A DNA stretch of 51,757 bases. Origin: a virus (taxonomy: Duplodnaviria > Caudoviricetes). Shown piece after piece: positions 25,397-47,638 of the stretch (within the stretch, counting starts at the first letter, position 1; each line of letters opens with the position of its first letter). The DNA is taken from positions 1-51,757 of the IMG/VR virus record IMGVR_UViG_3300036717_000008. One strand, 5' to 3'. The translations under genes were made by a program, and so were the position numbers. Below the pieces are notes generated by a model. It did not search any database. It saw nothing but the letters and a program-made list of their open reading frames with translations, and had not been told where the DNA came from.

Positions 25397-25413
25397 AGCA
25401 AGAATCGTGCCAA
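25397..25413 (-). promoter_or_regulatory. Sigma-54 (-24/-12) promoter for the tRNA/replication operon
   Basis: TTGGCACGATTCTTGCT is a perfect match to TGGCACG-N4-TTGC; intergenic. Confidence 0.9.
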
Positions 25414-25474
25414 CTAATCACAACATATATTATGTTATATTAGATTATACTATGTATGTATCGTTAAAGATTTA

Positions 25475-26368
25475 TTAGATCTTTTTCAACACACTGTATC
25501 GTTTAATTATTTGTTCGAGTGACCTAACATTAAGTTCAAGTTTAAACTCGGAAGACATAATCATATCTCGGAAGGATCCATTCAATAGTTCAGCTACATC
25601 TTTTTCTTTATGGAGGATCTTCCCAATCTCTTGCATGATGTCTGGTATATCACATCTTCTCTCTCTCAAAGGTTTGATCTTAAGAACAAAGGTTGATATA
25701 CGAGCGTAAAGATCAAGCCTAAACAACTTATCATTAACCATCTCCATTAAGTTACGATGTGTAGCACATACTATTCTACAGCTAATCTCAACCTCTTCTG
25801 TACCACCAACAGGACGTATGTATCGTTTACCATCTATTGGCTGTAATGCATTTAATAGCTTAGCTTGAATCTCAAGTGGCAAATCACCAACCTCATCAAG
25901 AAACAATACTCCACCTTTAGCAACTTCCATCATCCCTTTCTTGTCAGTCATTGCACCAGTAAATGATCCTTTCTTATGTCCAAATAGCTCTGATTCAATC
26001 AATTCTTTTGGCATTGCAGCACAGTTGATACGACAGAATTTAGCATCTCGATCACCAATCATGGCGCGAGCTATCAACTCTTTACCAGTACCAGTCTCAC
26101 CTAAGATTAAGACTTCATCGTCAATCATTGATAACTTACGAGCATCATCTTTTAAAGCTACAGTATCAGAGTCTATTGATATGAATTTATTGAGCCATGT
26201 CTCACATCCAGGAGTTGTGTTTAACAGGACAGGTTTGTCATCACGAATCTCAATTTTATAAGGTAACTTAAATGCAGCAATGTGCATCTTAGCACCATCA
26301 ATTAGATTATTCTGCAACATCAAGTTCAGAATATCTACCGGATCACTTTGTTGTGGATTGTTGGACAT
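25475..26368 (-). CDS. Sigma-54 enhancer-binding protein (bEBP) AAA+ domain, with no receiver and no HTH
   Basis: LGETGTGKE, INCAA, ESELFGHKKGSFTGA, GGVLFLDEVG, QAKLL, RIVCATH, FRLDLYAR, PLRERR, NVRSL; ends right after sensor II. Confidence 0.95.
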   Translation of the reverse strand: MSNNPQQSDPVDILNLMLQNNLIDGAKMHIAAFKLPYKIEIRDDKPVLLNTTPGCETWLNKFISIDSDTVALKDDARKLSMIDDEVLILGETGTGKELIARAMIGDRDAKFCRINCAAMPKELIESELFGHKKGSFTGAMTDKKGMMEVAKGGVLFLDEVGDLPLEIQAKLLNALQPIDGKRYIRPVGGTEEVEISCRIVCATHRNLMEMVNDKLFRLDLYARISTFVLKIKPLRERRCDIPDIMQEIGKILHKEKDVAELLNGSFRDMIMSSEFKLELNVRSLEQIIKRYSVLKKI

Positions 26369-26369
26369 A

Positions 26370-26555
26370 TTATTTCTTTTTAGTTATAATCATGGCAAAC
26401 ATATAACCAAGCATACCCACTAGCATTAGTGGCCATAGAAAAGCCATGATAATACACATAGTTGTATTATCAGTTTTGGGCTCTATTTTTTCGTTGTGAA
26501 TAAAAATCCCAAACCAAAATGGGATTAATACAATATACAACAATATAATATTCAT
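26370..26555 (-). CDS. Small two-TM membrane protein
   Basis: Two hydrophobic segments, FLWP motif. Confidence 0.65.
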   Translation of the reverse strand: MNIILLYIVLIPFWFGIFIHNEKIEPKTDNTTMCIIMAFLWPLMLVGMLGYMFAMIITKKK

Positions 26556-26899
26556 TTCTTTTTTCCTTTTTTATTAAAGACTCGTTCGTTCCACGCTTTC
26601 CATAATGACATTGCTTTATCACCTGTGTAGGTTAGTCTGTGATTAGCTGTCACTTGGAAAGTTACACAAGGTATCCAGGTATCAAGAAGTCGTTTACGGC
26701 TAGCCTCTTCAAGCATAGTTACAGGAGTAAGACTGCTTAATCCTGACATAAAAGCAGGAGCATCACAATCAAACTCATGACCATGAACTGTTGGGAATTT
26801 TGGTTTGAAAGCTCGTTTGTAATTACCACATGTAGTTACCCAACTATGCCATGCGTATTGACATTTACTTAAATCTACCACTATTCTATTATTTTTCAT
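26552..26899 (-). CDS. Hypothetical protein
   Basis: 115-aa packed ORF. Confidence 0.7.
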   Translation of the reverse strand: MKNNRIVVDLSKCQYAWHSWVTTCGNYKRAFKPKFPTVHGHEFDCDAPAFMSGLSSLTPVTMLEEASRKRLLDTWIPCVTFQVTANHRLTYTGDKAMSLWKAWNERVFNKKGKKK

Positions 26900-26906
26900 A
26901 TCACGA

Positions 26907-27092
26907 TTATGCCATAATTACGCCACAATTAATCCAGGTTCGGATAATTGTATCATAACTTACACTAGAGCCATCAATCTCATCTTGACTTCGTACATGC
27001 ATTATAGTATCACCCTGCCAAAAGACAAAACCTTTATCAGTGCAGACAACACTATAAATTGGTTTAGTTTTATTTAACTTTTTCTTTTTCAT
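26907..27092 (-). CDS. Hypothetical protein
   Basis: Packed ORF, likely start MKKKKL. Confidence 0.55.
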   Translation of the reverse strand: MKKKKLNKTKPIYSVVCTDKGFVFWQGDTIMHVRSQDEIDGSSVSYDTIIRTWINCGVIMA

Positions 27093-27094
27093 AA

Positions 27095-27328
27095 TTAATC
27101 TCCACATTCTTCTTTAGCTTGTTGAATAGCCTCTTCCTCCTCACCCTTTGTTAACTCAAAATCCTTTTCAAGCAAAGGCTGTGGCTTAGTTGATAGTATC
27201 TCCCAAGATTCAGGATCATCAGGTTCCTCAGGTGCACCATACTTATCTCTGTGTCCTTTCATTCCCCTGTGATACTCTAATGTAACCTCAACCTCAATCT
27301 CACGGGTTACTACTAATGTTATTGTCAT
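27095..27328 (-). CDS. Hypothetical acidic protein
   Basis: ATGA overlap; G.RDKYGAPEEPDDP motif. Confidence 0.65.
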   Translation of the reverse strand: MTITLVVTREIEVEVTLEYHRGMKGHRDKYGAPEEPDDPESWEILSTKPQPLLEKDFELTKGEEEEAIQQAKEECGD

Positions 27329-28266
27329 ATATCAATTCCATTTCTAAACCCCATAAATATAGGGTGTCGTAGTTTATCTTTTTGACCAACAGGTTTATAT
27401 TTACCAACAATGAATTTACCAAGATACTTATCTTGATTCATCCAAATTCTTTTCCTTAATTGATTTGTCAATCCTACACCTGTCCCAACATTGACAGTGT
27501 ATCCATCAGGATGTTGACATATAAAGGCTCCTAATGTATTCTTAGGAATCATATTATCCTGATGACTACTTCTATCCATAGCACCAAGGGCATTATGATT
27601 AGTAGGATTAACATTCTCCATCTGCTCCTCAAATCCTATAATCAATAATTCAGTTCGCAAGTATCTGGCAAACTTAACTAATATCTGTTCCTTTAAAGTT
27701 GACCTGTTATCTACAGTTCCTTTCTGGATATATAAACCATTAGGGTCACGAAAACAAATACCCTCTCCACCCAAATCTTCTATTGTTCGTAACTCCAAGA
27801 ATAAAGAATTAGCATTAGAACAAACATGTGGAAAGGAAAATTTAAATGGTGGTATAGACCAACATCTAAGATCTTTATCTATGGATCTCATGCGCTGTTC
27901 ATAAGTCATCCTCTCAAGATTAAAGTTATCAAGCACACGAAATTGAATAAGATCTGAATCCTTATGTTCACGGCTCATTACAATAGACTCAATCTCAGAA
28001 TAACTAAAAGATCGGTTATACAACTCCATATCATATCCACCCGGTAGAAGCATTGATCTGTCACGAATTGATCTGTTAGGAATAGGCTTTAGACGCTTAG
28101 ATAACAATGTACCATTAGCACGAATAGCCCTTATACCATCAAGTTTTACAGAGCATAGTACAGGGTATCTTAGACGGGACATTGCTTCTAGAATGTTATC
28201 ATCAGTATGTTCCACATTTGGTGGTAACAATGATGCTGCTGACATTGGACAGAATTTTCTTTTCAT
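27325..28266 (-). CDS. lig: ATP-dependent DNA ligase (minimal type)
   Basis: Motif I KLDGIR, YDMEL, FRVLD, GEGICFR, VKF, LGAF, VGTG, LRHPIFMGFR. Confidence 0.93.
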   Translation of the reverse strand: MKRKFCPMSAASLLPPNVEHTDDNILEAMSRLRYPVLCSVKLDGIRAIRANGTLLSKRLKPIPNRSIRDRSMLLPGGYDMELYNRSFSYSEIESIVMSREHKDSDLIQFRVLDNFNLERMTYEQRMRSIDKDLRCWSIPPFKFSFPHVCSNANSLFLELRTIEDLGGEGICFRDPNGLYIQKGTVDNRSTLKEQILVKFARYLRTELLIIGFEEQMENVNPTNHNALGAMDRSSHQDNMIPKNTLGAFICQHPDGYTVNVGTGVGLTNQLRKRIWMNQDKYLGKFIVGKYKPVGQKDKLRHPIFMGFRNGIDI

Positions 28267-28269
28267 AAA

Positions 28270-28452
28270 TTAAAAATAGCTTAAACACCAGTTATGATTA
28301 AATATACTAATTGTCAAATGATAATGTGTACCATTTCTTACAAAGATAATTTGCCAACATACAAATTTATCAGGGCTAGGTTTTACTTTGTAATGTACAC
28401 AACAAAATTTTCTTTTCATAATTTTATTCATCATCTTCTTCTGTATTTCCAT
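28270..28452 (-). CDS. Small hypothetical protein (true start probably near 28419)
   Basis: Fills the gap between helicase and ligase. Confidence 0.4.
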   Translation of the reverse strand: MEIQKKMMNKIMKRKFCCVHYKVKPSPDKFVCWQIIFVRNGTHYHLTISIFNHNWCLSYF

Positions 28453-30739: not shown

Positions 30740-30885
30740 ATTAATAAAAGTGAAACCCTCACTACCAAGGCCATTTGTGGAAGATTTGTCGGCCTGATAC
30801 TACCTGCAATACAATACGAATCCCATTACGCATTGATGCATTTGGGGTAATTCATTAGGTAAGGTAGTGAGAGATGTTGGTGAGA

Positions 30886-31161
30886 TTATTCGTCTGTTTT
30901 AATGAAAGTCGTGAAGGGCCAAACAGGATTATTTTCTGATAAATTTTCTTGCAAGGCTTTCATAGCTCCTTTTTCTATTTCAGGTGTTTGATTTGGATTT
31001 AGATTAAGAACCAGATTTTCTAATTGTTCAGACATAGATACCATAGCTAATGAGATGTATGCTAATCCTTTGACATCACTAGCTCGATTAATATCTATAT
31101 CAAGATCAGTGTTTAAGGTAAACGTGCTTGAATTTGAATTAAAGTCTATTGTTAATTTCAT
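30886..31161 (-). CDS. Hypothetical protein
   Basis: Packed ORF. Confidence 0.65.
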   Translation of the reverse strand: MKLTIDFNSNSSTFTLNTDLDIDINRASDVKGLAYISLAMVSMSEQLENLVLNLNPNQTPEIEKGAMKALQENLSENNPVWPFTTFIKTDE

Positions 31162-31162
31162 A

Positions 31163-31408
31163 TTACGGTTTGATGTGGTATTGTTTTAAAGCTTCACAAA
31201 TTAGTCGTTCAATAAATTCTGCCTCTTGATCTTCTGGAGAACATAGGTAATTTAAGACTCTAACTAAGCATTCATGCATCTTTTTGTTTTCTTTGTAGAG
31301 TTCATCCATCTCAATAGTCATGTTATAGATTCGAGCTTGAAGTCTCATTGTTTGATCATAAGGGGATGTGGTTCTTTGATTTAGCAAAATACCCTCTTCT
31401 TCACTCAT
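31163..31408 (-). CDS. Hypothetical coiled-coil protein
   Basis: Packed ORF with ATGA overlap. Confidence 0.65.
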   Translation of the reverse strand: MSEEEGILLNQRTTSPYDQTMRLQARIYNMTIEMDELYKENKKMHECLVRVLNYLCSPEDQEAEFIERLICEALKQYHIKP

Positions 31409-31854: not shown

Positions 31855-31967
31855 AGTTGTGGACTATTCGGAAATTAACACATGACAATTAGTCGCATTA
31901 ACTATTGACCTGATTATCAGATCGCCTGATGCAACAGAAACAGGTAGCTTTTGTAACTGTCATGTAG

Positions 31968-33142: not shown

Positions 33143-33159
33143 AGCAATTATCATGCCAA
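33143..33159 (-). promoter_or_regulatory. Sigma-54 promoter
   Basis: TTGGCATGATAATTGCT; intergenic and correctly oriented. Confidence 0.88.
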
Positions 33160-33204
33160 CTATCAACAGCATGTAATCGTTAACGATAAATATATAGTGT
33201 TATA

Positions 33205-33504
33205 TTAATCCTCTGCAAGCCATTTAAATAGTTCCTTATAAGTATCAAATTGGAATATGGTAAAATTGTCTTGAGCTTTGGTAACAGCATCTTGTATAGT
33301 GACGCAATTTTCAAATCCACTAAAACGACTACCTTCGGTTAAATCTATGGCACAAAAGATTATAAATTTACCATTATGTGGTAAAGCAGAGACAAATCCC
33401 TTATCACTAGTGTATTTATGAATCACTCCATAATATTTGTCTGAACTAGCATTTAAAGGATTAATAGTTGGAATATGGACCTCGTTAATAACTTGTATTT
33501 TCAT
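33205..33504 (-). CDS. Hypothetical protein
   Basis: 99-aa ORF ending FDTYKELFKWL. Confidence 0.65.
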   Translation of the reverse strand: MKIQVINEVHIPTINPLNASSDKYYGVIHKYTSDKGFVSALPHNGKFIIFCAIDLTEGSRFSGFENCVTIQDAVTKAQDNFTIFQFDTYKELFKWLAED

Positions 33505-33505
33505 A

Positions 33506-33733: not shown

Positions 33734-34393
<660 letters not shown>

Positions 34394-35626: not shown

Positions 35627-36181
35627 TTAAAATGGGTATTGTATAATTTCTCGTATTTTGTCAGCTTGCCATTTCCATTCATTAATAGGAGACCAACCAA
35701 CACCAACACCAACACTCAAGACAGCATAATAAATGGTCGTGGAAGTCATATGAGTAATGTTTTCATAGTGAGTATACATAGTTGAACGAGCTGCACATGA
35801 TGCAGCATGTGCAGCTTGTTTAGCACTATAATCAATTGATAATACGGCAGCCTCACAAGCCCCAAAGCTAGCTTTATCGGCTTCATTAACGGTAATATAT
35901 GATGGCTCTGTTAACCAACGCTTCGCTGCTTCAATTGCTTGTTTTGGTTTATTATTTTCAGGGTATTTTTCTTCAAACTTAAATAATACATGCTCTGCAC
36001 AAGCAATTGCGATCTTGACTGAATGATCTTTGTTTAAACGATTAGTTTTTCTTAAAAACCAAATCAACCAATTTCCATGGTGACACTCATTCCATGCACG
36101 TATTGGATCATAATCAACTGATTCCATGAATTGAATAGATTCATAGCACGGGTTTAAGTCTAAAAATTCTTGTTTTGTCAT
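35627..36181 (-). CDS. Imm5-like/Ala-rich early protein
   Basis: AIACAEHVL..FE..YP....PKQAIEAAKRWL. Confidence 0.65.
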   Translation of the reverse strand: MTKQEFLDLNPCYESIQFMESVDYDPIRAWNECHHGNWLIWFLRKTNRLNKDHSVKIAIACAEHVLFKFEEKYPENNKPKQAIEAAKRWLTEPSYITVNEADKASFGACEAAVLSIDYSAKQAAHAASCAARSTMYTHYENITHMTSTTIYYAVLSVGVGVGWSPINEWKWQADKIREIIQYPF

Positions 36182-36192
36182 AATTGATATGT

Positions 36193-36543
36193 CTATTGGC
36201 TAAATTTGAAGTATAAAGTCATTTTGATTTTTCCCTCTGCTAAATTGGTAAGGAAGTTGTCAATGCCAGTACCTAGAAAGACATTAGTCTCTTTTGAAAA
36301 AGATTGATCATGTCTCCAATGGCTACAAAAGTCACATATTTCAAACCAGAGTTTTATAGGCGTAAAGCCTTCAGCAGGTGTTTTCCTAAGTATTAGAGTA
36401 AATCGTTCTTTATTAGGGATGTACTTTCCAACTTGGGTCATACAAAGAGCCAAAGTTTGGTTATTCCATTCACATTCCCATCCACCCTCGTTAGAATAAA
36501 CAAACTGTAATTTGATTGGTGTTTTCATAATTGGTGTTTTCAT
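36193..36543 (-). CDS. Hypothetical protein
   Basis: ATGA-coupled; duplicated MKTPI start. Confidence 0.65.
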   Translation of the reverse strand: MKTPIMKTPIKLQFVYSNEGGWECEWNNQTLALCMTQVGKYIPNKERFTLILRKTPAEGFTPIKLWFEICDFCSHWRHDQSFSKETNVFLGTGIDNFLTNLAEGKIKMTLYFKFSQ

Positions 36544-36827
36544 ACGTAAATGCTTCCTGCATCAATGTCCCACGCGTGAATGCTTCCTGCATCAATGTTT
36601 CTCGCATCAATGTTTTCCGCATCAATACTCCACGCATCAATGTTTTCCGCGTGAATGTTTCCTGCGTAAATGTTCCATGCGTGAATATCTCCCGCGTAAA
36701 TGTTCCCTCTAATTTGCATCGAAGCTTCGATGCAAATTGGGAAGGTAAATTTCACTGAGTCATTTACGATCAGTTTTCCATCCTTAATATCTGCCTTGAC
36801 CTCTTCAAGGTTATGGTAAGTTTTCAT
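36540..36827 (-). CDS. Five-residue-repeat (beta-solenoid-like) protein
   Basis: 11 x [GWER][NDS]I[YHD][AV], encoded by 15-nt tandem repeats at about 36543-36707. Confidence 0.75.
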   Translation of the reverse strand: MKTYHNLEEVKADIKDGKLIVNDSVKFTFPICIEASMQIRGNIYAGDIHAWNIYAGNIHAENIDAWSIDAENIDARNIDAGSIHAWDIDAGSIYV

Positions 36828-36993: not shown

Positions 36994-37372
36994 AATTTTT
37001 GTTTCCTTTTGTTTTGTTATTTGTCAACTGAGAGTAATGCACAGATTTTCACCTATGCACTATTGCTCATTCGACTTATTGAAGCAATCACCTCCAAAGC
37101 TCTTAACTAATAGAGGGACTTGACTGATATATCCAATTCATTTTCTTGGATTTCCATAATAGTTGAATGCTGAAGTCTAGTCTATGGTTCATAATGCACT
37201 ATGAAAACATTACTCACATTCGTTAGGGACATACAATACGCGAATATTGTTCTACCCTTAAACTTCAGCAGTCAACCATTATGGTTATCTATTTACAGTC
37301 ATCAGACATCCTAATTGTGCTCGTCACACACTCACCTATTCGGATAGTATTCCAGTGAGATATGGTTAACCA

Positions 37373-37389
37373 AGCATATTACATGCCAA
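37373..37389 (-). promoter_or_regulatory. Sigma-54 promoter
   Basis: TTGGCATGTAATATGCT; intergenic, heads the early cluster. Confidence 0.8.
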
Positions 37390-37550
37390 TGCATGTTCTA
37401 TCTATTGATCCATTTTTAAATAACTCACCTCGTTGCTACCTACACGGTGTTAAGGATTTCAGGGTTTGCATGTTCTTAGTTGCGTTGATAACAGTATTAG
37501 ATGTTATAACGGGTTAGAACATACAATCATCACGGTCTTATTTGTCAGAG

Positions 37551-37608
37551 AAAATAAAAAGCCGGACTAAAGTGAGCTTTTGTAAGCTGCTAACTCTAGC
37601 CCGGCTTG
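37551..37608 (-). terminator. Intrinsic terminator after the first minus-strand gene
   Basis: AAGCCGGGCTAGAG...CTTTAGTCCGGCTT followed by a T-tract. Confidence 0.7.
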
Positions 37609-37627
37609 TGTCGTGAGTAGTTGTTGA

Positions 37628-38023: not shown

Positions 38024-38229
38024 AATACTATCTTTCCTATACTCCATGCCCAACTTGTCCAAGGTTTGATTGTCGCCTGTGTCACATGTATTACCCCAAC
38101 AATGATGGATTAACCATGGTATGTTGGGTACGCCTTTGGCGGTTCAAATTGTCAAATAAGTTTAAGACATGGAAATTACCTTGTGTATAACCTTAAGTTA
38201 TTCCCTAATATCTACTCACGACGAAATTA

Positions 38230-38668
38230 ATTGTCATTAATCAGCTGTCTAATGACAGGTGACTAATCAGGTTATTCGCCGTGTGACCTATTGGATAGTG
38301 ACGCCTGACCGCCTGTCTTTCGGCTATGTAAGCTAGCGAGTGTCTATTGGCTCCTTAATCTAGCTGCCGTCACCGGCGTGTGATTGTGTCCTACTAACAG
38401 TCGATCAGGAGTCACTATCCAATCTGTCATACCCAATAGTCCGGCTATCGTCCGCTAGTGCCTTACGTTGTCTCCAGTCTCATAGTTGGTTCGCATGCTG
38501 TCTGAAGTGTCCTGCGTTGCACAGGGTGTCATCATGCGTCAATCTAACCGGGTGAGTACTAGCTATTGTCGCTTACTATATTGGGTGCGGTGGTCTATTC
38601 AGGGTGCTAGCCCTATACCTGCCGATCAGGTCCGCTATGTGCCGTAGCGCACTCATGTGTGCGGACCT
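38230..38668 (-). ncRNA. Candidate large structured ncRNA or leader (strand inferred from the adjacent promoter)
   Basis: No ORF of 60 aa or more; GC-rich; consecutive long hairpins at 38281-38432, 38431-38586, 38588-38624 and 38628-38668. Confidence 0.6.
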
Positions 38669-38675
38669 TGCCGTT

Positions 38676-38692
38676 AGCTGTTATGATGCCAA
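38676..38692 (-). promoter_or_regulatory. Sigma-54 promoter (variant -12)
   Basis: TTGGCATCATAACAGCT; predicted +1 near 38665, at the edge of the structured region. Confidence 0.65.
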
Positions 38693-38739
38693 CACTATAT
38701 GTTGTAGTGTATTAACCATGGTGACACTACATGTGGTGG
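38692..38739. promoter_or_regulatory. Tandem NrdR-like boxes
   Basis: ACACTATATGTTGTAG (38692) and ACACTACATGTGGTGG (38724), 32 bp apart. Confidence 0.65.
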
Positions 38740-38744
38740 TTTTA

Positions 38745-38761
38745 TTGGCATAAAGATTGCT
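38745..38761 (+). promoter_or_regulatory. Sigma-54 promoter firing into the AT-rich region
   Basis: TTGGCATAAAGATTGCT. Confidence 0.75.
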
Positions 38762-38900
38762 ACGTTAATGATAAAGTTGTGTCATTATATTGTCATTATG
38801 GTCAAATTAATACATTAGAGTTAACCTGTTAATAATTAACATGTTATGATGATTATGCTGTCTATAATCGCTCACTTCACCTAACTTTATCGTTATAGTT

Positions 38901-38917
38901 AGCTATTAAAGTGCCAA
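38901..38917 (-). promoter_or_regulatory. Sigma-54 promoter
   Basis: TTGGCACTTTAATAGCT. Confidence 0.7.
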
Positions 38918-38951
38918 CAAATAAATGTCAATAAATCTTACTTAACAGTCA

Positions 38952-38964
38952 TAACCTGTTGATT
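38952..38964 (-). promoter_or_regulatory. IHF-binding site
   Basis: AATCAACAGGTTA matches WATCAANNNNTTR, 35 bp upstream of the 38901-38917 promoter. Confidence 0.55.
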
Positions 38965-39039
38965 TTGAACATAATCCAATTGTATCATAGCCTAATGAGT
39001 TAGGCTAAGTTAACTATTAAAATCCACCGAGTGCAACAG

Positions 39040-39650
39040 TTAGTATAACATTTCATTAAAGGTCTATATAACACTTTTCATTATTTTATATAAATAATTA
39101 ATTATAATATATATATAGTATACATACTTATATATTATATAATATATAACTTTATAAACTTTGGTTAAAAACGAAAATTTTATATAGACCAAAAGTAAAG
39201 TGAGTATTATATAAAACTTTAATAAGAAACTATACAAAGTTATATAATTAATAAGGTTTAATACTTAATTAAGCTTATTAACTATTAAGTAATCATTACT
39301 CAACACTAAGTAATCATTATTGATTAGTAAACATTACTAATTAACTGATTAGTAAGGTTTATTAAGTAAATCCGGTAATCAGGAAGTTGAAAATGAAAAC
39401 CAGAAAGTAAAACCCGAAACTTGACTATGCTATTCTCGAAATTTGATAAAAAATAAGTTTAGAAATATATAACAATATATAAATCCTATATAAACCCTAT
39501 ATACTAAATATATAATCTGTATATAACTATACAGAGATATTTTGTGAATCTTTAACGTTAAAGAATAGTTCGTTAACGTTAACTCTTCTGTGTTAAACGT
39601 TAACGATAACTCTTCCTGTATAATTATACTGTTATATAACCATAATATCA
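39040..39650. other. Very AT-rich non-coding divergence region; candidate replication origin or packaging/terminus site
   Basis: Extreme AT content; TAAGTAATCATTA x2, TGATTAGTAA x2, AACGTTAA palindromic cluster at 39552-39605. Confidence 0.5.
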
Positions 39651-39651
39651 A

Positions 39652-39668
39652 TTGGCATGAATCTTGCT
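39652..39668 (+). promoter_or_regulatory. Sigma-54 promoter for the packaging/late operon
   Basis: TTGGCATGAATCTTGCT. Confidence 0.9.
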
Positions 39669-39686
39669 TATGTTAGAGTTACAGTA

Positions 39687-39890
39687 ATGAAATATGACGA
39701 ATCACAAATACTATCTGACTCAGATTATGAAGCTCTTAAATCAAAAAGAGATAGTATTACCTCATTAATGAATTCTGGACCATTACCAGAACATTATGTG
39801 AATCATTTAAACACTCAATTAGGTCAGATTCGTACCACTTTAAAAAATCATCATCATGCTAAATTCCACTCTGGAAAAGGAAATAGATAA
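39687..39890 (+). CDS. Hypothetical protein
   Basis: Start moved to MKYDESQ because ATG 39657 lies inside the promoter. Confidence 0.6.
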   Translation: MKYDESQILSDSDYEALKSKRDSITSLMNSGPLPEHYVNHLNTQLGQIRTTLKNHHHAKFHSGKGNR

Positions 39891-40418: not shown

Positions 40419-40817
40419 ATGACAGCTCAAGAGACAGCTATTAAGACAGCCTTTGAAGTAGAGGAAATGACTCCACAAGAGATTTCTGAATGTATGGGTC
40501 TTGATGTCATAGCTGTTAAGTCCTGTCTATTAAATTACTCAACTAGATACCGTAAACTTTGTAATGAAGCTCCTGAAGAGGAAGATACTCTTAACTATAA
40601 TCGTGAAGAGCAACAGCGCATTAAAGATGTGATAATGGATCTAGCTATGGGAGCTGAATCTGAGAAGTTGAGATTTGAGGCAGCAGTTTATATTCGTGAT
40701 GATGCTAAAGGCCGTAAAGATCGTAATAACAATCTGCCAACTACTAACGTGCTAGTCCTTAATAACATCTTAAAACAGGGACGTGAGATGGCAGATAAGA
40801 TTAAACAGATTAATTAA
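40419..40817 (+). CDS. Terminase small subunit candidate
   Basis: N-terminal HTH-like MTPQEISECMGLDVIAVKSCL; directly before terL. Confidence 0.6.
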   Translation: MTAQETAIKTAFEVEEMTPQEISECMGLDVIAVKSCLLNYSTRYRKLCNEAPEEEDTLNYNREEQQRIKDVIMDLAMGAESEKLRFEAAVYIRDDAKGRKDRNNNLPTTNVLVLNNILKQGREMADKIKQIN

Positions 40818-42825
40818 GGTGGACCTCTCATCTCTAACACCTGAACAGTTAGCTGATGCCATTAATAATGGTACTGAACTTTCATCGTTGGTACAGAAAT
40901 CTTCTCATCCTGAATCTGAGAGTTGTGGCTTAGATTCTAACTCTGTACCAACGATATCTTCTGGGACCCACGCAAGTGGGGGCAACACGATAGATAATAA
41001 GACTGTAATTCCCCTTAATTCTAACTCTAACTTAACGGCGACCGCAGGTCGAACTTCCATAGAAACGATTTCTCCAAGTACACTCATAACCACAAATACA
41101 ATTGAACCAACTGTTATCCCTGACTATGTAGCCATTAATAGATCTATTAATGGTTCCTCACTTGACAAGGGAGAATTTGATGGATTAGATATACAAGATC
41201 CTGTAGAGCTATTAGTTCTATTAGAAGATGATATTCGTACTGGTGAGACTAAATTGCACCCTTGGCAAATCACTTTTATGTTAGATTTTGCCAATTCTAA
41301 ACATACTAAAGAGTCACCATTTCAGGCTGCTGTACAGGCATGTAACTCTTCAGGAAAAGATAAGTATGTAATAGCTGCTTGTGCAGTATGGTTATGTATG
41401 AGATATAGGGATGTTATATGTCCTATTACCTCCTCTTCTGGTGAACAGTTAGACAAGCAAACATGTGCTCATATTACAAGGTTATCTAATAAGGCTAATG
41501 TATTGTTTGCCAGTTATGGATTATCTTGGAAGATTAACTATAGAGATTACAAATTTCTACATGTTGATCCAATTACAGGTCGCCCTTGTACTAGTCAAAT
41601 AACACTATTTGCAACAGATGAACCTGGTAAAGCAGAGGGCTATCATCCCTTAGAAAAGGGTAAAAAGATGGCTGTATTCACGTCAGAAACAAAGTCTATC
41701 CCCTCTGACATTACTGATGCTATTGAACGGTGTACAGGGTTTACACATCGTGTAGATGCATCATCTCCTGGAGCAGCAGCAGGATATTTCTATAACGTAT
41801 GCTCATATGGTATAGCTCGTACCTCAATTTCCGACATTAAACAGCTTGATTCTACACAGATTATTCTATATAAAATTACAGCCTATGATTGTCCTCATAT
41901 TACCCCTTCAGAGATAAACCGGTTCGCAGCTAAACAACCGGGTGGAGTTAATAGCATTGTATACAGATCCTCAATATTAGCAGAATTTGGATCTACAGAT
42001 GAACAGGTTGTTATACCATCTGATATGGTACATAGAGCTGTTGAAAATACTAGAATGTTCTGTAAGATACAATGGATACAGGAACAATGCAATCATGCTG
42101 GATTTGATATTTCAATGGGTGGAGCAGAGAGTGTTATCTGCGTTAGAAATGGTAATAAACTCATTGGCATGGAATATGCTAATATACATGATACCAGTGC
42201 CCAGATTAGTTGGGCTGAAGAGATGTTCTTTAAACATAAATTGAACAATTCTGACTCTAAAATAAGAGGTGATTATGTTGGCATTGGCGGTCCTATATTA
42301 CAGATCTTAAAGAAGACTAAAAAGTGGGACAACATTATCTATGTTGACAGTCGTAATAAGGCCTCAGAATTTAAGACTTATAAGAATCGTGGTACTGAAT
42401 TATTCTTTCATGTACGTTCTTTATTTGAGAAAAAACACATCATTTTGTTTTATGATAAAGAACTCATAGAGCAATTGTGTTCTAGACATTTTAAAGTGAT
42501 TGATGCTAAGATACATCAATTACTATCTAAACAAGAGGAACGTAATAAAGGGTTTGTATCTCCTGATAGAGCTGATGCATTGAATCTTTGCTTTTGGGGA
42601 TATGAACGAACAGATTTAAAAGAGGATGAATCAAATCCTCCTTATAAACAGAAGGAACTTGAAGAAGTCTATGATCCTTCTAATGAAGCATTTGACCTTA
42701 AGAGCTGGGCTAATAGAGGTCGAAAGATGTATCAACCTGATCATGTTGAGATATCTGAAATGAAAGAAACTGGTCTTATAGATGAAATTAATCACTATAA
42801 TCAACAACTGCTAATGTGCCGATAA
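40783..42825 (+). CDS. terL: Terminase large subunit (start possibly GTG 40819)
   Basis: LHPWQ, ACNSSGKD, AEGYH, SSPG...GYFY, DCPHIT, GFDISMGG, GDYVGIGG, SPDRADAL. Confidence 0.92.
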   Translation: MRWQIRLNRLIKVDLSSLTPEQLADAINNGTELSSLVQKSSHPESESCGLDSNSVPTISSGTHASGGNTIDNKTVIPLNSNSNLTATAGRTSIETISPSTLITTNTIEPTVIPDYVAINRSINGSSLDKGEFDGLDIQDPVELLVLLEDDIRTGETKLHPWQITFMLDFANSKHTKESPFQAAVQACNSSGKDKYVIAACAVWLCMRYRDVICPITSSSGEQLDKQTCAHITRLSNKANVLFASYGLSWKINYRDYKFLHVDPITGRPCTSQITLFATDEPGKAEGYHPLEKGKKMAVFTSETKSIPSDITDAIERCTGFTHRVDASSPGAAAGYFYNVCSYGIARTSISDIKQLDSTQIILYKITAYDCPHITPSEINRFAAKQPGGVNSIVYRSSILAEFGSTDEQVVIPSDMVHRAVENTRMFCKIQWIQEQCNHAGFDISMGGAESVICVRNGNKLIGMEYANIHDTSAQISWAEEMFFKHKLNNSDSKIRGDYVGIGGPILQILKKTKKWDNIIYVDSRNKASEFKTYKNRGTELFFHVRSLFEKKHIILFYDKELIEQLCSRHFKVIDAKIHQLLSKQEERNKGFVSPDRADALNLCFWGYERTDLKEDESNPPYKQKELEEVYDPSNEAFDLKSWANRGRKMYQPDHVEISEMKETGLIDEINHYNQQLLMCR

Positions 42826-42829
42826 TAAT

Positions 42830-43282
42830 ATGAGTACTACTTACAATCCTCGGGATAACACCTTCATTAAGAAACCTGAACCATCTACATGTCCTACATG
42901 TGGTCAGTTGGTACAAGATCTTGGTAAGCCCTTTCAAAATCACATGAATAATTACATCTCTGAAACAGGTGTGATTATGACTATGAATAGTAATGAGGAC
43001 ATCATTGAAATTAAAGGTGTCCCTATGTATAAGTGTGATGACACTAACTCTAAGAATGGCTTGATGCATGTGTCACGTTATCTTGAGAATAAGAAATGTG
43101 CTGCTGCTAAGGTTGTAGTTGGGGTTGATAGGCAACCTCAGGCACAACAGCAACAGGTACAACAGCAGGTCAATCCTGAAAAAGCTATTGCGCCACAAAT
43201 TAATGTCGCAATTCCCCCACCTGCCAGTAAGCTACGAGCTTCACAATTGGTGGCTCCTAAACCCTTGGAAGGAGCTGTTTAA
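42830..43282 (+). CDS. Hypothetical protein (CPTCG motif, Q/P-rich tail)
   Basis: 150-aa packed ORF. Confidence 0.65.
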   Translation: MSTTYNPRDNTFIKKPEPSTCPTCGQLVQDLGKPFQNHMNNYISETGVIMTMNSNEDIIEIKGVPMYKCDDTNSKNGLMHVSRYLENKKCAAAKVVVGVDRQPQAQQQQVQQQVNPEKAIAPQINVAIPPPASKLRASQLVAPKPLEGAV

Positions 43283-43284
43283 TT

Positions 43285-43572
43285 ATGAATGAAACCATCG
43301 AACAACTTCAGGTTAAAACTATCGAACAACATATCATCCAAGTTAAAACCTTGCGTCGTGATATTGATGCTCAAATTCAACAGGTTAAATCTTTGAAGTC
43401 TTCCCGTGAACTATCATTGGTGATTACCAAATTGCAAGAAGGAGTTATGTGGCTTGGTATGGAGCTTAAAAGAGTTAATGAACTCACTGGTGTTGGTACT
43501 AATCCTTACCCAAATAGTAAGGACCCATCTAATACGAAGATTGAACCAACTGCGGATGGACTTAAACTTTAA
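43285..43572 (+). CDS. Acb2/Tad1-hairpin-like small protein
   Basis: SRELSLVITKLQEGVMWL motif. Confidence 0.5.
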   Translation: MNETIEQLQVKTIEQHIIQVKTLRRDIDAQIQQVKSLKSSRELSLVITKLQEGVMWLGMELKRVNELTGVGTNPYPNSKDPSNTKIEPTADGLKL

Positions 43573-43583
43573 CTAATAATATT

Positions 43584-43877
43584 ATGCCACTAGAATCTAA
43601 TCAAGATCCAGAAGATGATAAACAGAATACCGGAACTGTTGAATATGCTAAGTCGGGAGATAATGATGGAGATGATGACTCCACTCCTGAAGATGGTGTA
43701 AGTATTCCAGAAGACTTCCAGAAACAGGTGCATGGAGTAATGTCTAAATGCACTAATTGTCATCACATAGATCATGTGAGGTCAAAACTCAATGAGAAAG
43801 AAAAAGAGATGAGGGATAAGGAGATGAAGGGTAAGAGGAAGTCATTCTCTATGGATGACGCACCTACACAATATTAA
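43584..43877 (+). CDS. Hypothetical protein, acidic N-terminus and basic C-terminus
   Basis: Packed ORF. Confidence 0.65.
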   Translation: MPLESNQDPEDDKQNTGTVEYAKSGDNDGDDDSTPEDGVSIPEDFQKQVHGVMSKCTNCHHIDHVRSKLNEKEKEMRDKEMKGKRKSFSMDDAPTQY

Positions 43878-43885
43878 GGACTATT

Positions 43886-45760
43886 ATGCCAGATGACTCT
43901 GCTGTTGATTACGGTACAGAATATATAGATGCCACTGACTATAAGAAATTGGTCACCAAGATCAATAACTTATATGATGTCGCGTTTGACCTAACAACCA
44001 AGTCTCTGGCAACCCGTAAATTGCGTTATGTAGAACTTGACCTTGAAGTAGAACGTAAAGCTGGGAGATTGGCACCTGACGAAATCTACACTCCAATACA
44101 TGTAATTGACACTAACATACGACGTGAACAATCTCAATATGTACAGTATGTTACACAGTCTCCAAGAGCAGTTATATTGAAAGATCGTGATGATCCTGCT
44201 AATGATCTTTCCTTACTAGAAGTTGATCTAACAGAGAAGTTGAGATTTGATGGTTGGCAATTAGCAACTTATGCTAATATTGATGGGTTTCAGTCCTATG
44301 GCTATGGTGTAATGGAAACCATAATGGACCAAAATAATCCTGGTGAGATTGGTCGTGAGTATGTTCAATTTGGTGACTTCTCATTCATTGCTGATACTAG
44401 GGATTTACAGAAGTGTGAAATGATAGGGCGAGCTTATTATTTCACTAAGACTAAACTAAAGCACTTAACAAGTATTGATAACAAGGAGGATAGATGGGAT
44501 AAAGATCAGACTGAGAAGTTGTTAAAGGCTGAGCCTAATGATGAACAATCTCAGATCTATTCTGGGACTACAACCATAAACCGTTCCTTATACAAAGTCT
44601 TCAAGATAATGTTTAGGGTTAAAGGTACAGTATTTGTAGGTTGGGCTTGTCCTAAATTGTGTGATGACTGGTTGCGTAAACCACGAGAATTATATCTTGG
44701 GAGAAGGACAATTCGTGATGACATTATCAAGCAATCTCAGAATCCTCTCTCAGGTGGTCAGATTGATCCTAAATACATTGCAATGATGCAGAAAGGGTTA
44801 CCTCCCTCTGATGAGGAATATGAGACTGAATATCCATATGTTCTTTACCCTTATCTCATCTCTGAAAATGACACTATCAGCAATTTAAAAGGGCGCACAT
44901 TTCTAGATCAAGATACTCAGAATGCAGCTACTAGTCTATTAAGTTGTACCTTAACTAAGGCTAGGAGATCTTCAATTCTGGCTTTCTCTAAGGACACAAC
45001 TGATCCTAATGATGACTTCTTGATGCAGAAGAATATCATCTTAAAGCAAGGAGCATTGATTAATGGTAAAGTTAAAGAGTTCTCAATGGAGCCTCCTGAT
45101 GCTCAGATGTTTACTGCCATTAACACTCTGATTTCCATCAATCAACAGGAAACCTCACAAATCAATTTCGCAGAGAATAACAGACAAGCTGATTCTAGAA
45201 AGACTGCTACAGCTATTAAGGCCTCCATTTCACAGGCACAACAGTTATCCTCAACACAAATAACCTTGTTTAGCATGGCTCTTAAGAAGCAATATACTTA
45301 TGAGTCAATGATTATTCGGTCACGGGTAATGGCTGGGTTAATTAAAGTGTCGCCAGTACTAGCCCAGATGTATGCTAAGAATTGGACTGTTAAGCCCTCT
45401 GGTGATACAGATGTTATTGAGAAACAACAGATGGTTGAGAAGATGACTGAGGCATGGCCTATTATGTCTCAAACAGCTTGTGCGTCCTTATTTTTAGCTG
45501 ATCTATTAGAGAAGATGTTTCCTGATAGTGCAGCCAAGTATGTACAAGCATTACAGCAGGCCGATCAACAGAAACAATCTCAGCAACAACAGATGATGCA
45601 ACAGGGATTAATGTTTGCTAAACAGTTAGGTACTGATATCATAGGTCTAGCTAAGAAACCTGAGATGTTTAGTGAGAGTGGATTGATACACGTTTATCCT
45701 CAAATTGAGAATCTCGCAGATAAAGCAAAACAACTAATGGCACAACTAGAAGCTAAATAA
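43886..45760 (+). CDS. Portal protein
   Basis: 624 aa, helical, between terL and scaffold; YGYGVM, RKTATAI, Q-rich barrel-like tail. Confidence 0.75.
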   Translation: MPDDSAVDYGTEYIDATDYKKLVTKINNLYDVAFDLTTKSLATRKLRYVELDLEVERKAGRLAPDEIYTPIHVIDTNIRREQSQYVQYVTQSPRAVILKDRDDPANDLSLLEVDLTEKLRFDGWQLATYANIDGFQSYGYGVMETIMDQNNPGEIGREYVQFGDFSFIADTRDLQKCEMIGRAYYFTKTKLKHLTSIDNKEDRWDKDQTEKLLKAEPNDEQSQIYSGTTTINRSLYKVFKIMFRVKGTVFVGWACPKLCDDWLRKPRELYLGRRTIRDDIIKQSQNPLSGGQIDPKYIAMMQKGLPPSDEEYETEYPYVLYPYLISENDTISNLKGRTFLDQDTQNAATSLLSCTLTKARRSSILAFSKDTTDPNDDFLMQKNIILKQGALINGKVKEFSMEPPDAQMFTAINTLISINQQETSQINFAENNRQADSRKTATAIKASISQAQQLSSTQITLFSMALKKQYTYESMIIRSRVMAGLIKVSPVLAQMYAKNWTVKPSGDTDVIEKQQMVEKMTEAWPIMSQTACASLFLADLLEKMFPDSAAKYVQALQQADQQKQSQQQQMMQQGLMFAKQLGTDIIGLAKKPEMFSESGLIHVYPQIENLADKAKQLMAQLEAK

Positions 45761-45761
45761 A

Positions 45762-46019
45762 ATGTCAAACATCACCCCAGAAAACGTAGCAGAGTTACAG
45801 CACATAGATTGGTTAAAGCACCCTGTAACAGTACAAATGATAAAGAATATTCGTGCCCATAAAAAGGATCTAATAGAAAAGGGTATTGCTATTAGTAGTG
45901 ATTACACTCAGCCAGATAACTTCTTTAGATCCTTGAGTTATGGGGCTAAAACTATTGATGCAATTTTAAGGCAAATTGAAAACACTGATCAATACTTAGA
46001 AGTGAGTAAACGGAACTAA
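45762..46019 (+). CDS. Hypothetical head-associated protein
   Basis: WLKHPVT motif; follows the portal. Confidence 0.65.
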   Translation: MSNITPENVAELQHIDWLKHPVTVQMIKNIRAHKKDLIEKGIAISSDYTQPDNFFRSLSYGAKTIDAILRQIENTDQYLEVSKRN

Positions 46020-46160
46020 TGGACGCTCGCTACCTGGAACGTAACCGAGCGACCGTAAGGGCGCGAGGTAACCACTGCTTTCCCCACTACAGGCAATGCG
46101 GGCGCGGGTAGCTGGCACGAAATGAAGGCTAATCCCGCCCACTGCGTGGATTCGGGATAC
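46020..46160 (+). ncRNA. GC-rich structured intergenic element
   Basis: CGCTCG/CGAGCG stem, CC-GTAA-GG tetraloop, GGGCG/CGCCC and TAGC/GCTA stems. Confidence 0.4.
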
Positions 46161-46191
46161 TAACAAAACAACAAACAGAAAGAAAATACAT

Positions 46192-47382
46192 ATGCCAATG
46201 GACGTACTAGTTAATACACCCGGTGCAACTCCTGCTCTTCTTGAGAAGACAATGGAGATTCCGGACAACATTAAATCAATGGTATTTGACTCTAGTTCAA
46301 TGCCTAATATGGATGGTACAGGAGATACTACCATAACAACTGATAAAGGTGTAGAACTTAAGGTTGAAGAGCCTGATATTAAAGAGGAGAAATCTGGACA
46401 GGAAGAACCTAAACTTGAAGTTAAGAAAGAGGAGAAGATAACTCCTCCATCCGCAAAGAAAGATACTGAGAAAGTGGCGCCAGTTAAAACTGATGATAAG
46501 CCAAAAATTAATCAAATATCTCCTGTTAAGAAAGCTGATAAAAAGGATGATACTCAGGATACTTTTGATTATACAAAGTATGCTCCTCAAGAGGTAACTA
46601 ATATGAAGAATATGTCTCGTCAATCACGAGAGGCATATGCTAAAGTTATTGAGGAAAATAAAACATTATCTCAGCTGAAAGATTCTAATTATCTTCAACA
46701 TGAGCAAGGCTATACCTTATCACCTGAATATCGTCAATTGCAGACTCGTGAAACAGAGGTCTATTCTGAAGGTAAGGCTTGGGAGAATGCACTATTGGCT
46801 ATTAAGAAAGGTGAGAAGTTTCGTCAACCTATTGATAGGGATAAGGATGGAAGATTAGTATTTAGCGAGCTTACTGCACCTACTGATGTTGATGAGATTC
46901 GTATTGCACAGAATTTAGCATTGTGTACTACTGAATTGGGTAAGGTGAGAGGAGAGCTGAATGGTTATGGTACTCAATTTAAGAATAGGATTAGTCAGGA
47001 TGTAAAGGATATTCAAGCAGAAAGATCTAATCGTTTTGCATGGGTATCAGATCCTAAATTGATGGATGCTCCTGTTAATGTCAATGGTAAAGAGATTCCT
47101 GTTAAACAGATCATTTCTGAGTTTAAATCTCTATTGCCAGTTTATCATCGTAATTCCATTGTTGCAGATGTTGCTGCTGATCTATTTGTAGCATTACAAA
47201 TTCAAAATGGATTGTTACAAGAGGCACAAAAGGGCGCAACTATTAGTGATCTTAAAGCTAAAGAGGCTAGTAGAGCAGAACCTACATCAGAGGATTCTAA
47301 TCGTAATGATGGAGGAGATAAATTAACCATTAAAGGTAAATCTGTACCTCGTAAATTTAGCCTTGAGGAAATGCCTGAATAA
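46192..47382 (+). CDS. Scaffolding protein
   Basis: Charged, disordered N-terminus plus coiled coil, between portal and capsid. Confidence 0.65.
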   Translation: MPMDVLVNTPGATPALLEKTMEIPDNIKSMVFDSSSMPNMDGTGDTTITTDKGVELKVEEPDIKEEKSGQEEPKLEVKKEEKITPPSAKKDTEKVAPVKTDDKPKINQISPVKKADKKDDTQDTFDYTKYAPQEVTNMKNMSRQSREAYAKVIEENKTLSQLKDSNYLQHEQGYTLSPEYRQLQTRETEVYSEGKAWENALLAIKKGEKFRQPIDRDKDGRLVFSELTAPTDVDEIRIAQNLALCTTELGKVRGELNGYGTQFKNRISQDVKDIQAERSNRFAWVSDPKLMDAPVNVNGKEIPVKQIISEFKSLLPVYHRNSIVADVAADLFVALQIQNGLLQEAQKGATISDLKAKEASRAEPTSEDSNRNDGGDKLTIKGKSVPRKFSLEEMPE

Positions 47383-47383
47383 T

Positions 47384-47608
47384 ATGAAAAAGATTGCTGT
47401 TCTATTTGTGTACCAGTTTTTATTTATCGTGTCTGTTACTTACGTTGTTGAAATTAAGATAAAAGAGTTTGATGATCGTATTAGCAAACTGGAAAATAAT
47501 CAACCAAAATCTGTGATATATCCTGGGTTTAGTATACCTTGTATTACCACTACAAATTATTATACCTTAGTGGCCTGTTCCTCAAACTTAGTTGAAGAGC
47601 AGAAATAA
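47384..47608 (+). CDS. Small membrane-anchored protein
   Basis: MKK + hydrophobic helix, short coiled coil. Confidence 0.6.
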   Translation: MKKIAVLFVYQFLFIVSVTYVVEIKIKEFDDRISKLENNQPKSVIYPGFSIPCITTTNYYTLVACSSNLVEEQK

Positions 47609-47621
47609 CCCTTAATTACAC

Positions 47622-47638
47622 TTGGCATGATTTCTGCT
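47622..47638 (+). promoter_or_regulatory. Sigma-54 promoter for the major capsid operon
   Basis: TTGGCATGATTTCTGCT, 140 nt upstream of the capsid ATG. Confidence 0.85.

Follow-up and report, generated by a model that had tools for sequence, protein, structure and literature searches.

Genome organisation and sigma-54-type sites

The window analysed here is the whole of a virus record in IMG/VR (IMGVR_UViG_3300036717_000008, Caudoviricetes), a genome that is 51,757 bp long, has a completeness rating of 100% and bears a terminal direct repeat of 127 bp. Our subject is a set of motifs in this DNA that resemble promoters for sigma-54 (RpoN), an alternative sigma factor, together with a phage gene for a sigma-54 activator. 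The genes form two divergent arms, which are separated by a 1.6-kb non-coding stretch (38062-39687) and meet at 14851/14854. According to a crude caller of open reading frames (ORFs), 90.3% of the window is ORF. The leftward arm contains many small ORFs without a family match, a helicase, an ATP-dependent ligase and the sigma-54 activator, and also a tRNA, an exonuclease, a deoxynucleoside monophosphate kinase, a Sak4-like protein, a primase/helicase and a family-A DNA polymerase made up of two ORFs. The rightward arm encodes a putative large terminase, a putative portal, a putative capsid protein, an SU10-type adaptor (Pfam), a 1586-aa protein and a tail-spike-like protein that spans the ends of the record. 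The activator gene and the sigma-54-type sites are as follows.

25475..26368, minus strand: sigma-54 activator of the bacterial enhancer-binding protein (bEBP) family, 297 aa, Pfam Sigma54_activat (PF00158)
25397..25413, minus strand: putative sigma-54-type promoter, the strongest (30.5 bits), 62 nt past the activator stop
33143..33159, minus strand: putative sigma-54-type promoter (26.7 bits), heading the operon 33036 to 25475
37373..37389, minus strand: weak sigma-54-type site (12.9 bits), preceding a structured leader and the small-gene cluster 36827 to 33205
38676..38692, minus strand: weak sigma-54-type site (13.2 bits), preceding a 566-nt structured RNA and the 144-aa ORF 38062-37628
38745..38761, plus strand: sigma-54-type site (16.6 bits), reading into ORF-free A+T-rich repeats, back to back with 38676
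38901..38917, minus strand: sigma-54-type site (15.4 bits), upstream of 38676 in the same direction, convergent with 38745
39652..39668, plus strand: putative sigma-54-type promoter (26.5 bits), heading the rightward operon (small genes, terminase, portal)
42164..42180, plus strand: intragenic sigma-54-type site (17.5 bits), inside the putative terminase gene
47622..47638, plus strand: putative sigma-54-type promoter (23.2 bits), 140 nt ahead of the putative major capsid gene
1789..1804, plus strand: TGGCAC-N6-TTGCT site, TGGCACGGTATTTGCT (18.0 bits), within the last 160 nt of ORF 1478-1948

The pattern TTGGCA-N8-GCT had nine exact matches in the window, against 0.36 expected (standard deviation 0.59; maximum 3 in 100 dinucleotide shuffles). 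Eight of these are intergenic, and the ninth lies within ORF 40783-42825. A first-pass annotation of the window had listed eight intergenic sites of this pattern, all of which we found at the positions and on the strands that it gave; it had missed those at 42164 and 1789. The pattern TGGCA-N7-[AT]GC[TA] occurs at 10 sites, 8 of them in the ~10% of the window that is intergenic. The textbook core TGGCA-N6-TTGC gave five exact matches versus 0.39 expected, and once a mismatch was allowed the pattern no longer discriminated (18 versus 11.3 expected, with 2 of 100 shuffles attaining 18).

This enrichment is further supported by a weight matrix built from 51 distinct sites of related genomes. The matrix scan against shuffled sequence, a check that the first-pass annotation had proposed, yielded 12 matches of at least 10 bits in the window versus a mean of 1.57 in 30 shuffles, a comparison that is independent in the flanks only because the cores had been chosen by regular expression. 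Eight window matches exceeded the best shuffle score of 15.1. The consensus of the 51 sites, TTGGCACGAATCTTGCTTA, equals the canonical sigma-54 consensus in both elements and in their spacing.

The strongest four sites, at 23-30 bits, each stand at the head of a major operon. Site 25397(-) heads an operon with the tRNA and the replication genes (24960 down to 14854). Site 33143(-) precedes genes for a 214-aa protein, the helicase, the ligase and the activator, and the orthologues of the 214-aa gene in the two syntenic relatives described below (G001 and G002) likewise have sigma-54-type sites upstream. For site 39652(+), the predicted +1 lies near 39679 and the first in-frame ATG past it is at 39687; the matching region of G001 and G002 has sites as well. 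Site 47622(+) heads the capsid genes. For the control-region sites at 37373, 38676, 38745 and 38901, the scores are 12.9-16.6 bits and the -12 elements depart from the consensus. The function of the intragenic site at 42164, which is not conserved in G001 or G002, is doubtful. Site 1789(+), 147 nt ahead of a 407-aa gene, differs from the exact pattern only by the absent first T, and no counterpart was seen at that place in G001 or G002. Taken together, these matches support the view that the window sites represent canonical -24/-12 elements, placed ahead of every major transcription unit on both arms.

A phage-encoded sigma-54 activator

The first-pass claim that the phage encodes a bEBP is borne out by the profile match. 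Sigma54_activat covers residues 69-229 of the protein with 185.8 bits against a cut-off of 20.2 (E 6.7e-55), and both the catalytic and the sigma-54-contact motifs are kept: GETGTGKE (Walker A), ESELFG and GSFTGA. In an alignment of 35 sequences, the Walker A lysine, D158/E159 of Walker B, the arginine fingers R217/R223 and N280-V281-R282 of sensor II (NVRS) are invariant. The same is true of G134 and T137 in the GAFTGA-type loop, the contact to region I of sigma-54, and variants of this loop include GAFTGA, GAYTGS and GAFTDA.

Members of the bEBP family typically have a C-terminal enhancer-binding helix-turn-helix (HTH), which is missing in a minority. The AAA+ domains of FlrA, FleQ, NtrC1 and PspF in the PDB align to residues 74-294 of the 297 residues of the phage activator, which ends three residues past this alignment. 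The end of the AAA+ domain is thus also the end of the protein, which leaves no space for a C-terminal HTH of the usual kind. Accordingly, no HTH family in Pfam matched the activator, and its NCBIfam matches end ahead of the part of each model that covers the HTH. With every NCBIfam equivalog, the protein scored under the curated cut-off. At the other end, residues 1-75 had no Pfam match at E values up to 10 that would indicate an N-terminal sensor domain (REC, GAF, PAS, V4R). The N-terminal ~65 aa are conserved within the phage activator family only, and a word-based search with residues 1-72 returned only the protein itself. A PHROG of unknown function matches the activator. Hence, the protein appears to consist of little more than the AAA+ sigma-54 interaction domain, preceded by a short extension at the N-terminus. 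As it has no receiver, GAF or PAS domain and no C-terminal HTH, one would predict constitutive activity, exerted on closed complexes from solution.

Most of the 66 tblastn matches to the activator in phage records are contigs of bacteria that had been deposited as phage. The record of a gut phage, MT121960.1 (L204:5770-6684), contains an unannotated 304-aa activator-like protein with GAFTGA and an altered Walker A (GETGTDKE); its gene adjoins a primase-like gene.

The activator and the motif in related genomes

No close relatives of the window were found among 50,697 GenBank phage records (megablast; capsid tblastn). The activator itself belongs to a large family, whose full-length homologues from metagenomes measure 280-325 aa and form no fewer than 120 clusters at 90% identity; among the longest contigs, sizes of 47-55 kb are very common. 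IMG/VR contains 239 stretches with activator relatives. Two of the related genomes, G001 and G002, share synteny with the window, their proteins being 30-82% identical to those of the window, and have three and five exact sites, respectively, against none for the control pattern. Another 15 genomes (G003-G017) have 6-10 sites each, 117 in total, versus 2 for the backwards-read pattern. The survey of relatives for co-occurrence of activator and motif, also suggested at first pass, thus found several sites in 18 of the 18 genomes examined, a co-occurrence shown one way in that all of these genomes had been chosen as activator-bearing.

The position of the sites is conserved as well. At 56 of 80 related loci, of which 76 had at least 300 nt past the activator stop, a same-strand site lies at -60 to +300 nt of that stop, mostly at +3 to +50. 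Around the activator loci, forward-strand sites numbered 84 versus 14 on the reverse strand, and reversed-sequence controls gave 28. The sites after the activator represent 46 distinct combinations of upstream sequence and N-terminus, two being on long, probably bacterial-type activators. Furthermore, the putative capsid gene has a site 133-211 nt ahead of it in nine of nine whole genomes. Across nine genomes, 47 of 81 sites are intergenic, compared to 9.4% of the DNA, and 36 of these 47 point at the next gene. The comparison supports conservation of the motif at orthologous positions, despite only 30-80% protein identity.

A second group of activators is shorter (241-260 aa, with nearly no N-terminal extension) and occurs in other viral contigs (L057-L065, L071-L093). 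At these loci a site lies 3-41 nt past the stop, with direct repeats such as TTAGAAGATAGAA ahead of it. As these loci carry both gene and promoter, the module is not limited to one phage lineage.

Proposed transcription through host sigma-54

Our results suggest that the motifs are promoters for the host RNA polymerase with host sigma-54 (RpoN), and that the phage protein encoded at 25475-26368 is the ATPase that opens them; we consider this explanation likely. The window phage and a large group of relatives would then probably run most of their gene expression via host sigma-54. For the main operons, this proposed role is well supported by the comparative evidence.

The host sigma-54 holoenzyme would sit on the phage sites as closed complexes, and the phage AAA+ protein would assemble and open these complexes from solution, turning on the strong promoters 33143(-), 25397(-), 39652(+) and 47622(+). 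That an activator consisting of an AAA+ domain only, DctD250, drives sigma-54 promoters without an enhancer is stated in the accessible part of an earlier report (PMC3844500). Site 25397(-) would drive the tRNA and replication operon, 39652(+) the packaging operon, and 47622(+) the capsid and tail operon, while 33143(-) would drive the activator's own operon in a positive feedback. The activator gene is the last of this operon, 6.8 kb downstream of the site, and because no convincing terminator lies between, its expression would be self-reinforcing. This agrees with the first-pass view that an activator gene downstream of such a promoter implies both feedback and a priming step. Possible sources of the first activator molecules are a housekeeping promoter within the 1.6-kb control region that escaped recognition, read-through, activators of the host, and leakiness of the weak sites. 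Transcription at a low level without an activator has been associated with -12 elements that depart from the consensus, and is rare in vivo as far as the accessible text of that source goes (PMC4551910). The promoter motifs with their statistics, placement and conservation, and the sequence motifs of the activator, are observations; that the holoenzyme binds, that activation takes place from solution, in which order events follow and how the activator is first made are inferences.

Other transcription machinery would offer another route. In line with the first-pass claim that no polymerase or sigma factor gene is recognisable, six-frame profile searches found neither Sigma54_DBD nor Sigma70_r2 in the window. 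The part of the claim that concerns a polymerase gained nothing from a search with the T7-type RNA_pol profile, which had no match in control genomes and hence is uninformative on the window. Sigma-70-type promoters were at shuffle level in the two window halves (70 versus 62.0 and 72 versus 73.6), and were not enriched in nine genomes (15 versus 18.0 expected). The Bacteroidota-type -7 motif was not enriched either (0 versus 1.8; 51 versus 55.5). The only promoter-like k-mers enriched in intergenic DNA were those of the sigma-54 motif, besides A+T-rich repeats and an RNA hairpin loop.

Several points weigh against the proposed role of host sigma-54. The four control-region sites are weak and oddly arranged, both back to back and convergent. 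Of the 81 sites in nine genomes, 34 fall inside ORFs, and some of these are kept merely as coding sequence, for example TGGCAA... in the polymerase gene common to G001 and G002, so a regular-expression match alone does not make a promoter. About 30 small ORFs were not scanned singly, and a very divergent sigma factor or polymerase is thus possible. An activator operon that depends on its own activator requires a priming step, for which no source has been pinpointed. Metatranscriptome contigs cover part of the sequence, and could be carried-over DNA. Finally, the presence of rpoN in the host is an assumption.

The earlier claim that the lytic cascade as a whole runs on sigma-54 is well supported by conservation for the main operons, and was overstated for the early genes, where the control-region sites reach only 12.9-16.6 bits. 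An explanation that takes this difference into account might be that sigma-54 and the activator serve the middle and late operons only, and that the earliest genes and the first activator are transcribed from housekeeping promoters. This may well be correct, although we stop short of calling it probable. Such promoters, being of the host's own type, would have escaped recognition, and the weak sites at 37373, 38676, 38745 and 38901 would have a minor or other role. The gap between these sites and the 23-30 bits at the operon heads fits this explanation, as does phage YuA, which has early sigma-70 promoters and -24/-12 promoters in its structural region only. There is also room for such promoters in the non-coding stretch 38062-39687, where one 11-of-12 sigma-70-like match (39651-39623) points leftward, and gene starts without Shine-Dalgarno motifs but with A-rich leaders suggest unusual host signals. 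Conversely, neither sigma-70-type matches nor the Bacteroidota-type -7 motif were enriched, and the intergenic k-mers brought up no other promoter type than sigma-54. Division of labour between housekeeping and sigma-54 promoters would refine the mechanism proposed above, and conflicts only with the claim that everything runs on sigma-54. In that wider claim, a widespread clade of ~50-kb phages would have no housekeeping-sigma promoters and would express all operons, early ones included, via sigma-54 and a constitutive enhancer-independent activator, with the first transcripts coming from leaky control-region sites. We regard this as rather unlikely. It would imply that the first-transcript sites are deliberately leaky through their non-consensus -12 elements, and that timing depends on how strong each promoter is, on lineage-specific elements just ahead of the -24 box and on structured leaders. 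If true, every phage of the clade would strictly require rpoN in its host.

Two further explanations question whether the motifs serve as phage promoters at all. Possibly, the activator mainly switches on the sigma-54 regulon of the host (such as RNA repair, nitrogen or envelope genes), with the phage motifs being incidental or decoys. An activator without a DNA-binding domain would indeed act on any closed complex, including those of the host, as may be gathered from the accessible part of the work on enhancer-free activation (PMC3844500), and the three close, opposing sites at 38676-38917 resemble a binding cluster more than simple promoters. Yet decoys need neither a fixed placement before the capsid gene (9 of 9) and after the activator (56 of 80) nor co-orientation with genes, and activation of host genes is compatible with use of phage promoters; we consider this explanation improbable. 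More improbable still, to the point that we give it very little weight, is that the likeness to sigma-54 promoters is a coincidence and that the motif is bound by another protein, such as a repressor, a divergent sigma factor of the phage, or a protein of replication or packaging. Many phage ORFs lack a family match and could encode such a protein, and ORF 40419-40817 contains a weak Sigma70_r4_2-like stretch (13.1 bits, under the cut-off of 25.7). However, we infer that this stretch is the HTH of the small terminase, because it sits just before the terminase gene, the usual place of HTH-bearing small subunits. Moreover, the consensus fits sigma-54 in both elements and the spacing, is asymmetric and is oriented to genes, and 18 of 18 genomes pair it with a protein whose sole known role is to activate sigma-54 holoenzyme. 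Promoters for host sigma-54, opened by the phage ATPase, hence remain our preferred explanation.

Comparison with known systems

The first-pass annotation knew of no characterised phage with such a strategy. The use of host sigma-54 does have a precedent, as Pseudomonas phage YuA (Yuavirus) already depends on it: the accessible text of two sources (PMC5053324, citing Ceyssens 2008; bioRxiv 10.1101/2023.10.13.562163) presents host sigma-54 as a strict requirement for the development of YuA. Phage use of host sigma-54 is there termed rare, not unprecedented (PMC5053324, in the portion available). As the window phage probably does, YuA relies on host sigma-54 and brings no RNA polymerase. The YuA GenBank record annotates three high-activity -24/-12 promoters, confined to the structural region, and sigma-70 promoters elsewhere. 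In contrast to the window phage, YuA has no detectable homologue of the activator: it was in the searched collection, and no Pseudomonas phage was among the 66 tblastn matches. Neither did we find a sequence relationship between YuA and the window phage (megablast and capsid tblastn, 50,697 records). The window phage would thus resemble YuA in mechanism, while its sequence places it outside the YuA group.

Natural sigma-54 activators without a DNA-binding domain are FlgR of Helicobacter and CtcC of Chlamydia. The phage activator ends where the solved AAA+ constructs end. It differs from engineered proteins consisting of the AAA+ domain only by its additional conserved N-terminal extension of ~65 aa, which belongs to no known family. 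It also differs from AAA+-only activators in that it is encoded by a virus, adjoins its own (putative) target promoter and lies below every NCBIfam equivalog cut-off. Among the engineered proteins, DctD250 and PspF(1-275), the central AAA+ domain alone gives promiscuous, enhancer-free activation from solution, according to the accessible part of their description (PMC3844500).

Other phages redirect the host polymerase with proteins of their own. Known takeover routes are own polymerases, sigma factors and remodellers of sigma-70, and the sigma-54 route is documented for the YuA group, where the phage brings no activator. Examples of redirection by an own sigma factor or by co-activators are phiEco32 gp36, and MotA/AsiA and gp55/gp33/gp45 of T4. 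The logic in phiEco32 and T4 is alike, in that a phage without a polymerase uses a phage protein to switch the host polymerase to phage promoters. In the window phage, however, the specificity subunit would be the host's alternative sigma factor, and the phage would bring only the ATP-driven opener. The SU10-type adaptor and the portal lead point to a podovirus body plan as in the phiEco32/SU10 group.

Another AAA+ protein of this kind is Htm (Gp204) of Escherichia phage AV110, which has a bEBP-like AAA+ fold without a C-terminal DNA-binding domain and is proposed to act on sigma-54 polymerase (bioRxiv 10.64898/2026.10.06.757011). Going by the accessible part of that preprint, Htm is without the GAFTGA loop and its Walker B is altered, whereas the window activator keeps both, and the same part describes no cognate set of -24/-12 promoters for Htm. 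In the open-access papers searched, supplements aside, we found no report of a phage with a canonical GAFTGA activator plus a cognate genome-wide promoter set. New here, judging from the sequence, would be that the phage brings the ATPase itself and has sigma-54-type promoters ahead of its replication, packaging and capsid operons.

If confirmed, this would add a distinct and common strategy to the known programmes of phage gene expression, and loss of rpoN would be predicted to protect hosts from an entire phage clade. The activators would be natural minimal enhancer-independent activators of sigma-54, and the compact, orthogonal pairs of activator and promoter could be of use in synthetic biology. 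The priming step poses the question how so tightly locked a promoter class can begin a lytic cycle.

Upstream elements, leaders and the control region

At the three strongest non-capsid promoters, the motif ATATAAC lies 12-45 nt upstream of the -24 box (25434-25440, 33199-33205 and 39631-39640). The relatives have TATAAC-N3-TAACA or other lineage-specific repeats at this place, and capsid promoters have no upstream element of the ATATAAC type. These elements are proximal, compared with the 80-150 bp at which upstream activator sequences of sigma-54 promoters lie. In addition, CGTTAACG palindromes occur at 33178, 39571 and 39598 (3 versus 0.11 expected), all upstream of promoters 33143 and 39652. 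The presence of such elements suggests a second, DNA-binding regulator or distinct promoter classes.

Further features of the control region and of the leftward leaders are listed below.

38100..38665, minus strand: structured ORF-poor RNA, G+C-richer, of no known family; minimum free energy (MFE) z = -5.3; 36-nt inverted repeat; downstream of site 38676
37090..37362, minus strand: structured leader; MFE z = -5.4; 31-nt inverted repeat; downstream of site 37373
38762..39651, no strand assigned: A+T-rich ORF-free region of 890 bp with iterated repeats, the lowest G+C and the minimum of the cumulative GC skew

A third long structured leader after a site has z = -3.0. The structured leaders had no Rfam match (38100-38665 at E up to 1), and 38100-38665 and 37090-37362 showed no DNA similarity to G001 or G002. 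The structured stretch 38100-38665 is followed by the 144-aa ORF and, by eye, a strong hairpin with a T-run near 37530-37610. In G001 and G002 a gene for transfer-messenger RNA (tmRNA; RF00023, 110.3 bits) lies ~200 nt downstream of a sigma-54-type site (L011:2997-3287 and L014:9551-9844, respectively, both on the minus strand), with an unusually long tag according to ARAGORN. No tmRNA gene is present in the window, where structured RNAs occupy comparable positions. Region 38762-39651 could be a replication origin, perhaps a transcription-activated one, or a regulatory hub.

The capsid leader contains a hairpin in the window (47697-47716, plus strand), and one or two short hairpins also occur in G001, G002, G008, G012, G014 and G017. 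They have the fixed loop AAGGGCAT, and their stems covary between genomes while staying complementary. The sequence AGGGCAT is 8-fold enriched in the intergenic DNA of nine genomes. The conserved loop and covarying stems make this hairpin look like an RNA operator for a protein. An 11-of-12 sigma-70 match at 47710 overlaps the stem of this hairpin and probably is no promoter.

Host and habitat

The sequence is contained in metagenome runs labelled as peat or permafrost, some of which are metatranscriptomes (as contigs only). At 35-57% identity, the best bacterial homologues of the activator are spread over many phyla, and phage genes do not adjoin them. The G001 tmRNA matches bacteria over the universal 3' end only, in 1 of 201, 31 of 201 and 15 of 201 genomes of the phyla of G018, G021 and G019, respectively. 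Shine-Dalgarno motifs precede 5 of 37 genes in the window, against a rate of 0.13 for random 17-mers, and in the window and eight relatives Shine-Dalgarno-like 4-mers are no commoner than in random 17-mers. The leaders are rich in A (47% versus 31%), with A at position -3 in 19 of the 37 genes. An absence of Shine-Dalgarno motifs together with A-rich leaders is typical of Bacteroidota. These data hint at a host without Shine-Dalgarno pairing and with unusual expression signals.

Other genes and features

The assignments of the structural genes and the tRNA are as follows.

40783..42825, plus strand: putative large terminase subunit, 680 aa; ESM Atlas feature matches to terminase clusters (score 0.98), a lead only
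43886..45760, plus strand: putative portal protein (P22/SU10-like); ESM Atlas feature matches (0.96-0.98), a lead only
47778..49118, plus strand: putative major capsid protein, 446 aa; assigned by position and highest conservation (77-82% identity in relatives)
24960..25033, minus strand: tRNA with anticodon ACT (ARAGORN); Rfam tRNA 49.7 bits; ~350 nt downstream of promoter 25397

By sequence, the terminase candidate had no match in Pfam, PHROG or PDB, the portal candidate none in PDB, and the putative capsid protein none in Pfam or PHROG. The best PDB sequence match of the 1586-aa protein was insignificant (E 0.31, 11.8 bits). A fast-filter Rfam run did not pick up the tRNA. Its anticodon would read AGT (Ser), yet the long variable arm is absent, which is unusual for a serine tRNA, and its identity is uncertain.

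Two overlapping ORFs (585 and 337 aa; 17757-19514 and 16769-17782, both on the minus strand) together encode the family-A DNA polymerase, which is split likewise in G001 and G002. A 95-aa protein encoded between the terminase and portal genes (43285-43572, plus strand) matches the Acb2/Tad1 hairpin domain with 30.4 bits against a cut-off of 27; phage sponges for signalling nucleotides of defence have this fold. A 184-aa protein in the small leftward gene cluster (35627-36181, minus strand) has an Imm5-like immunity-protein domain (E 8.2e-12). Repeats occur within two ORFs: trinucleotide-type repeats (CAGCAGCAT...) at 33760-33983 in ORF 33734-34393, and seven copies of a 15/30-nt repeat at 36545-36694 in ORF 36540-36827. 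On the plus strand, a G+C-rich intergenic stretch of 172 nt (46020-46191) lies ahead of a 396-aa gene. Finally, gene 49158-49712 is followed by a perfect G+C-rich hairpin and a T-rich run (49713-49779, plus strand), likely a terminator or attenuator behind the capsid genes.

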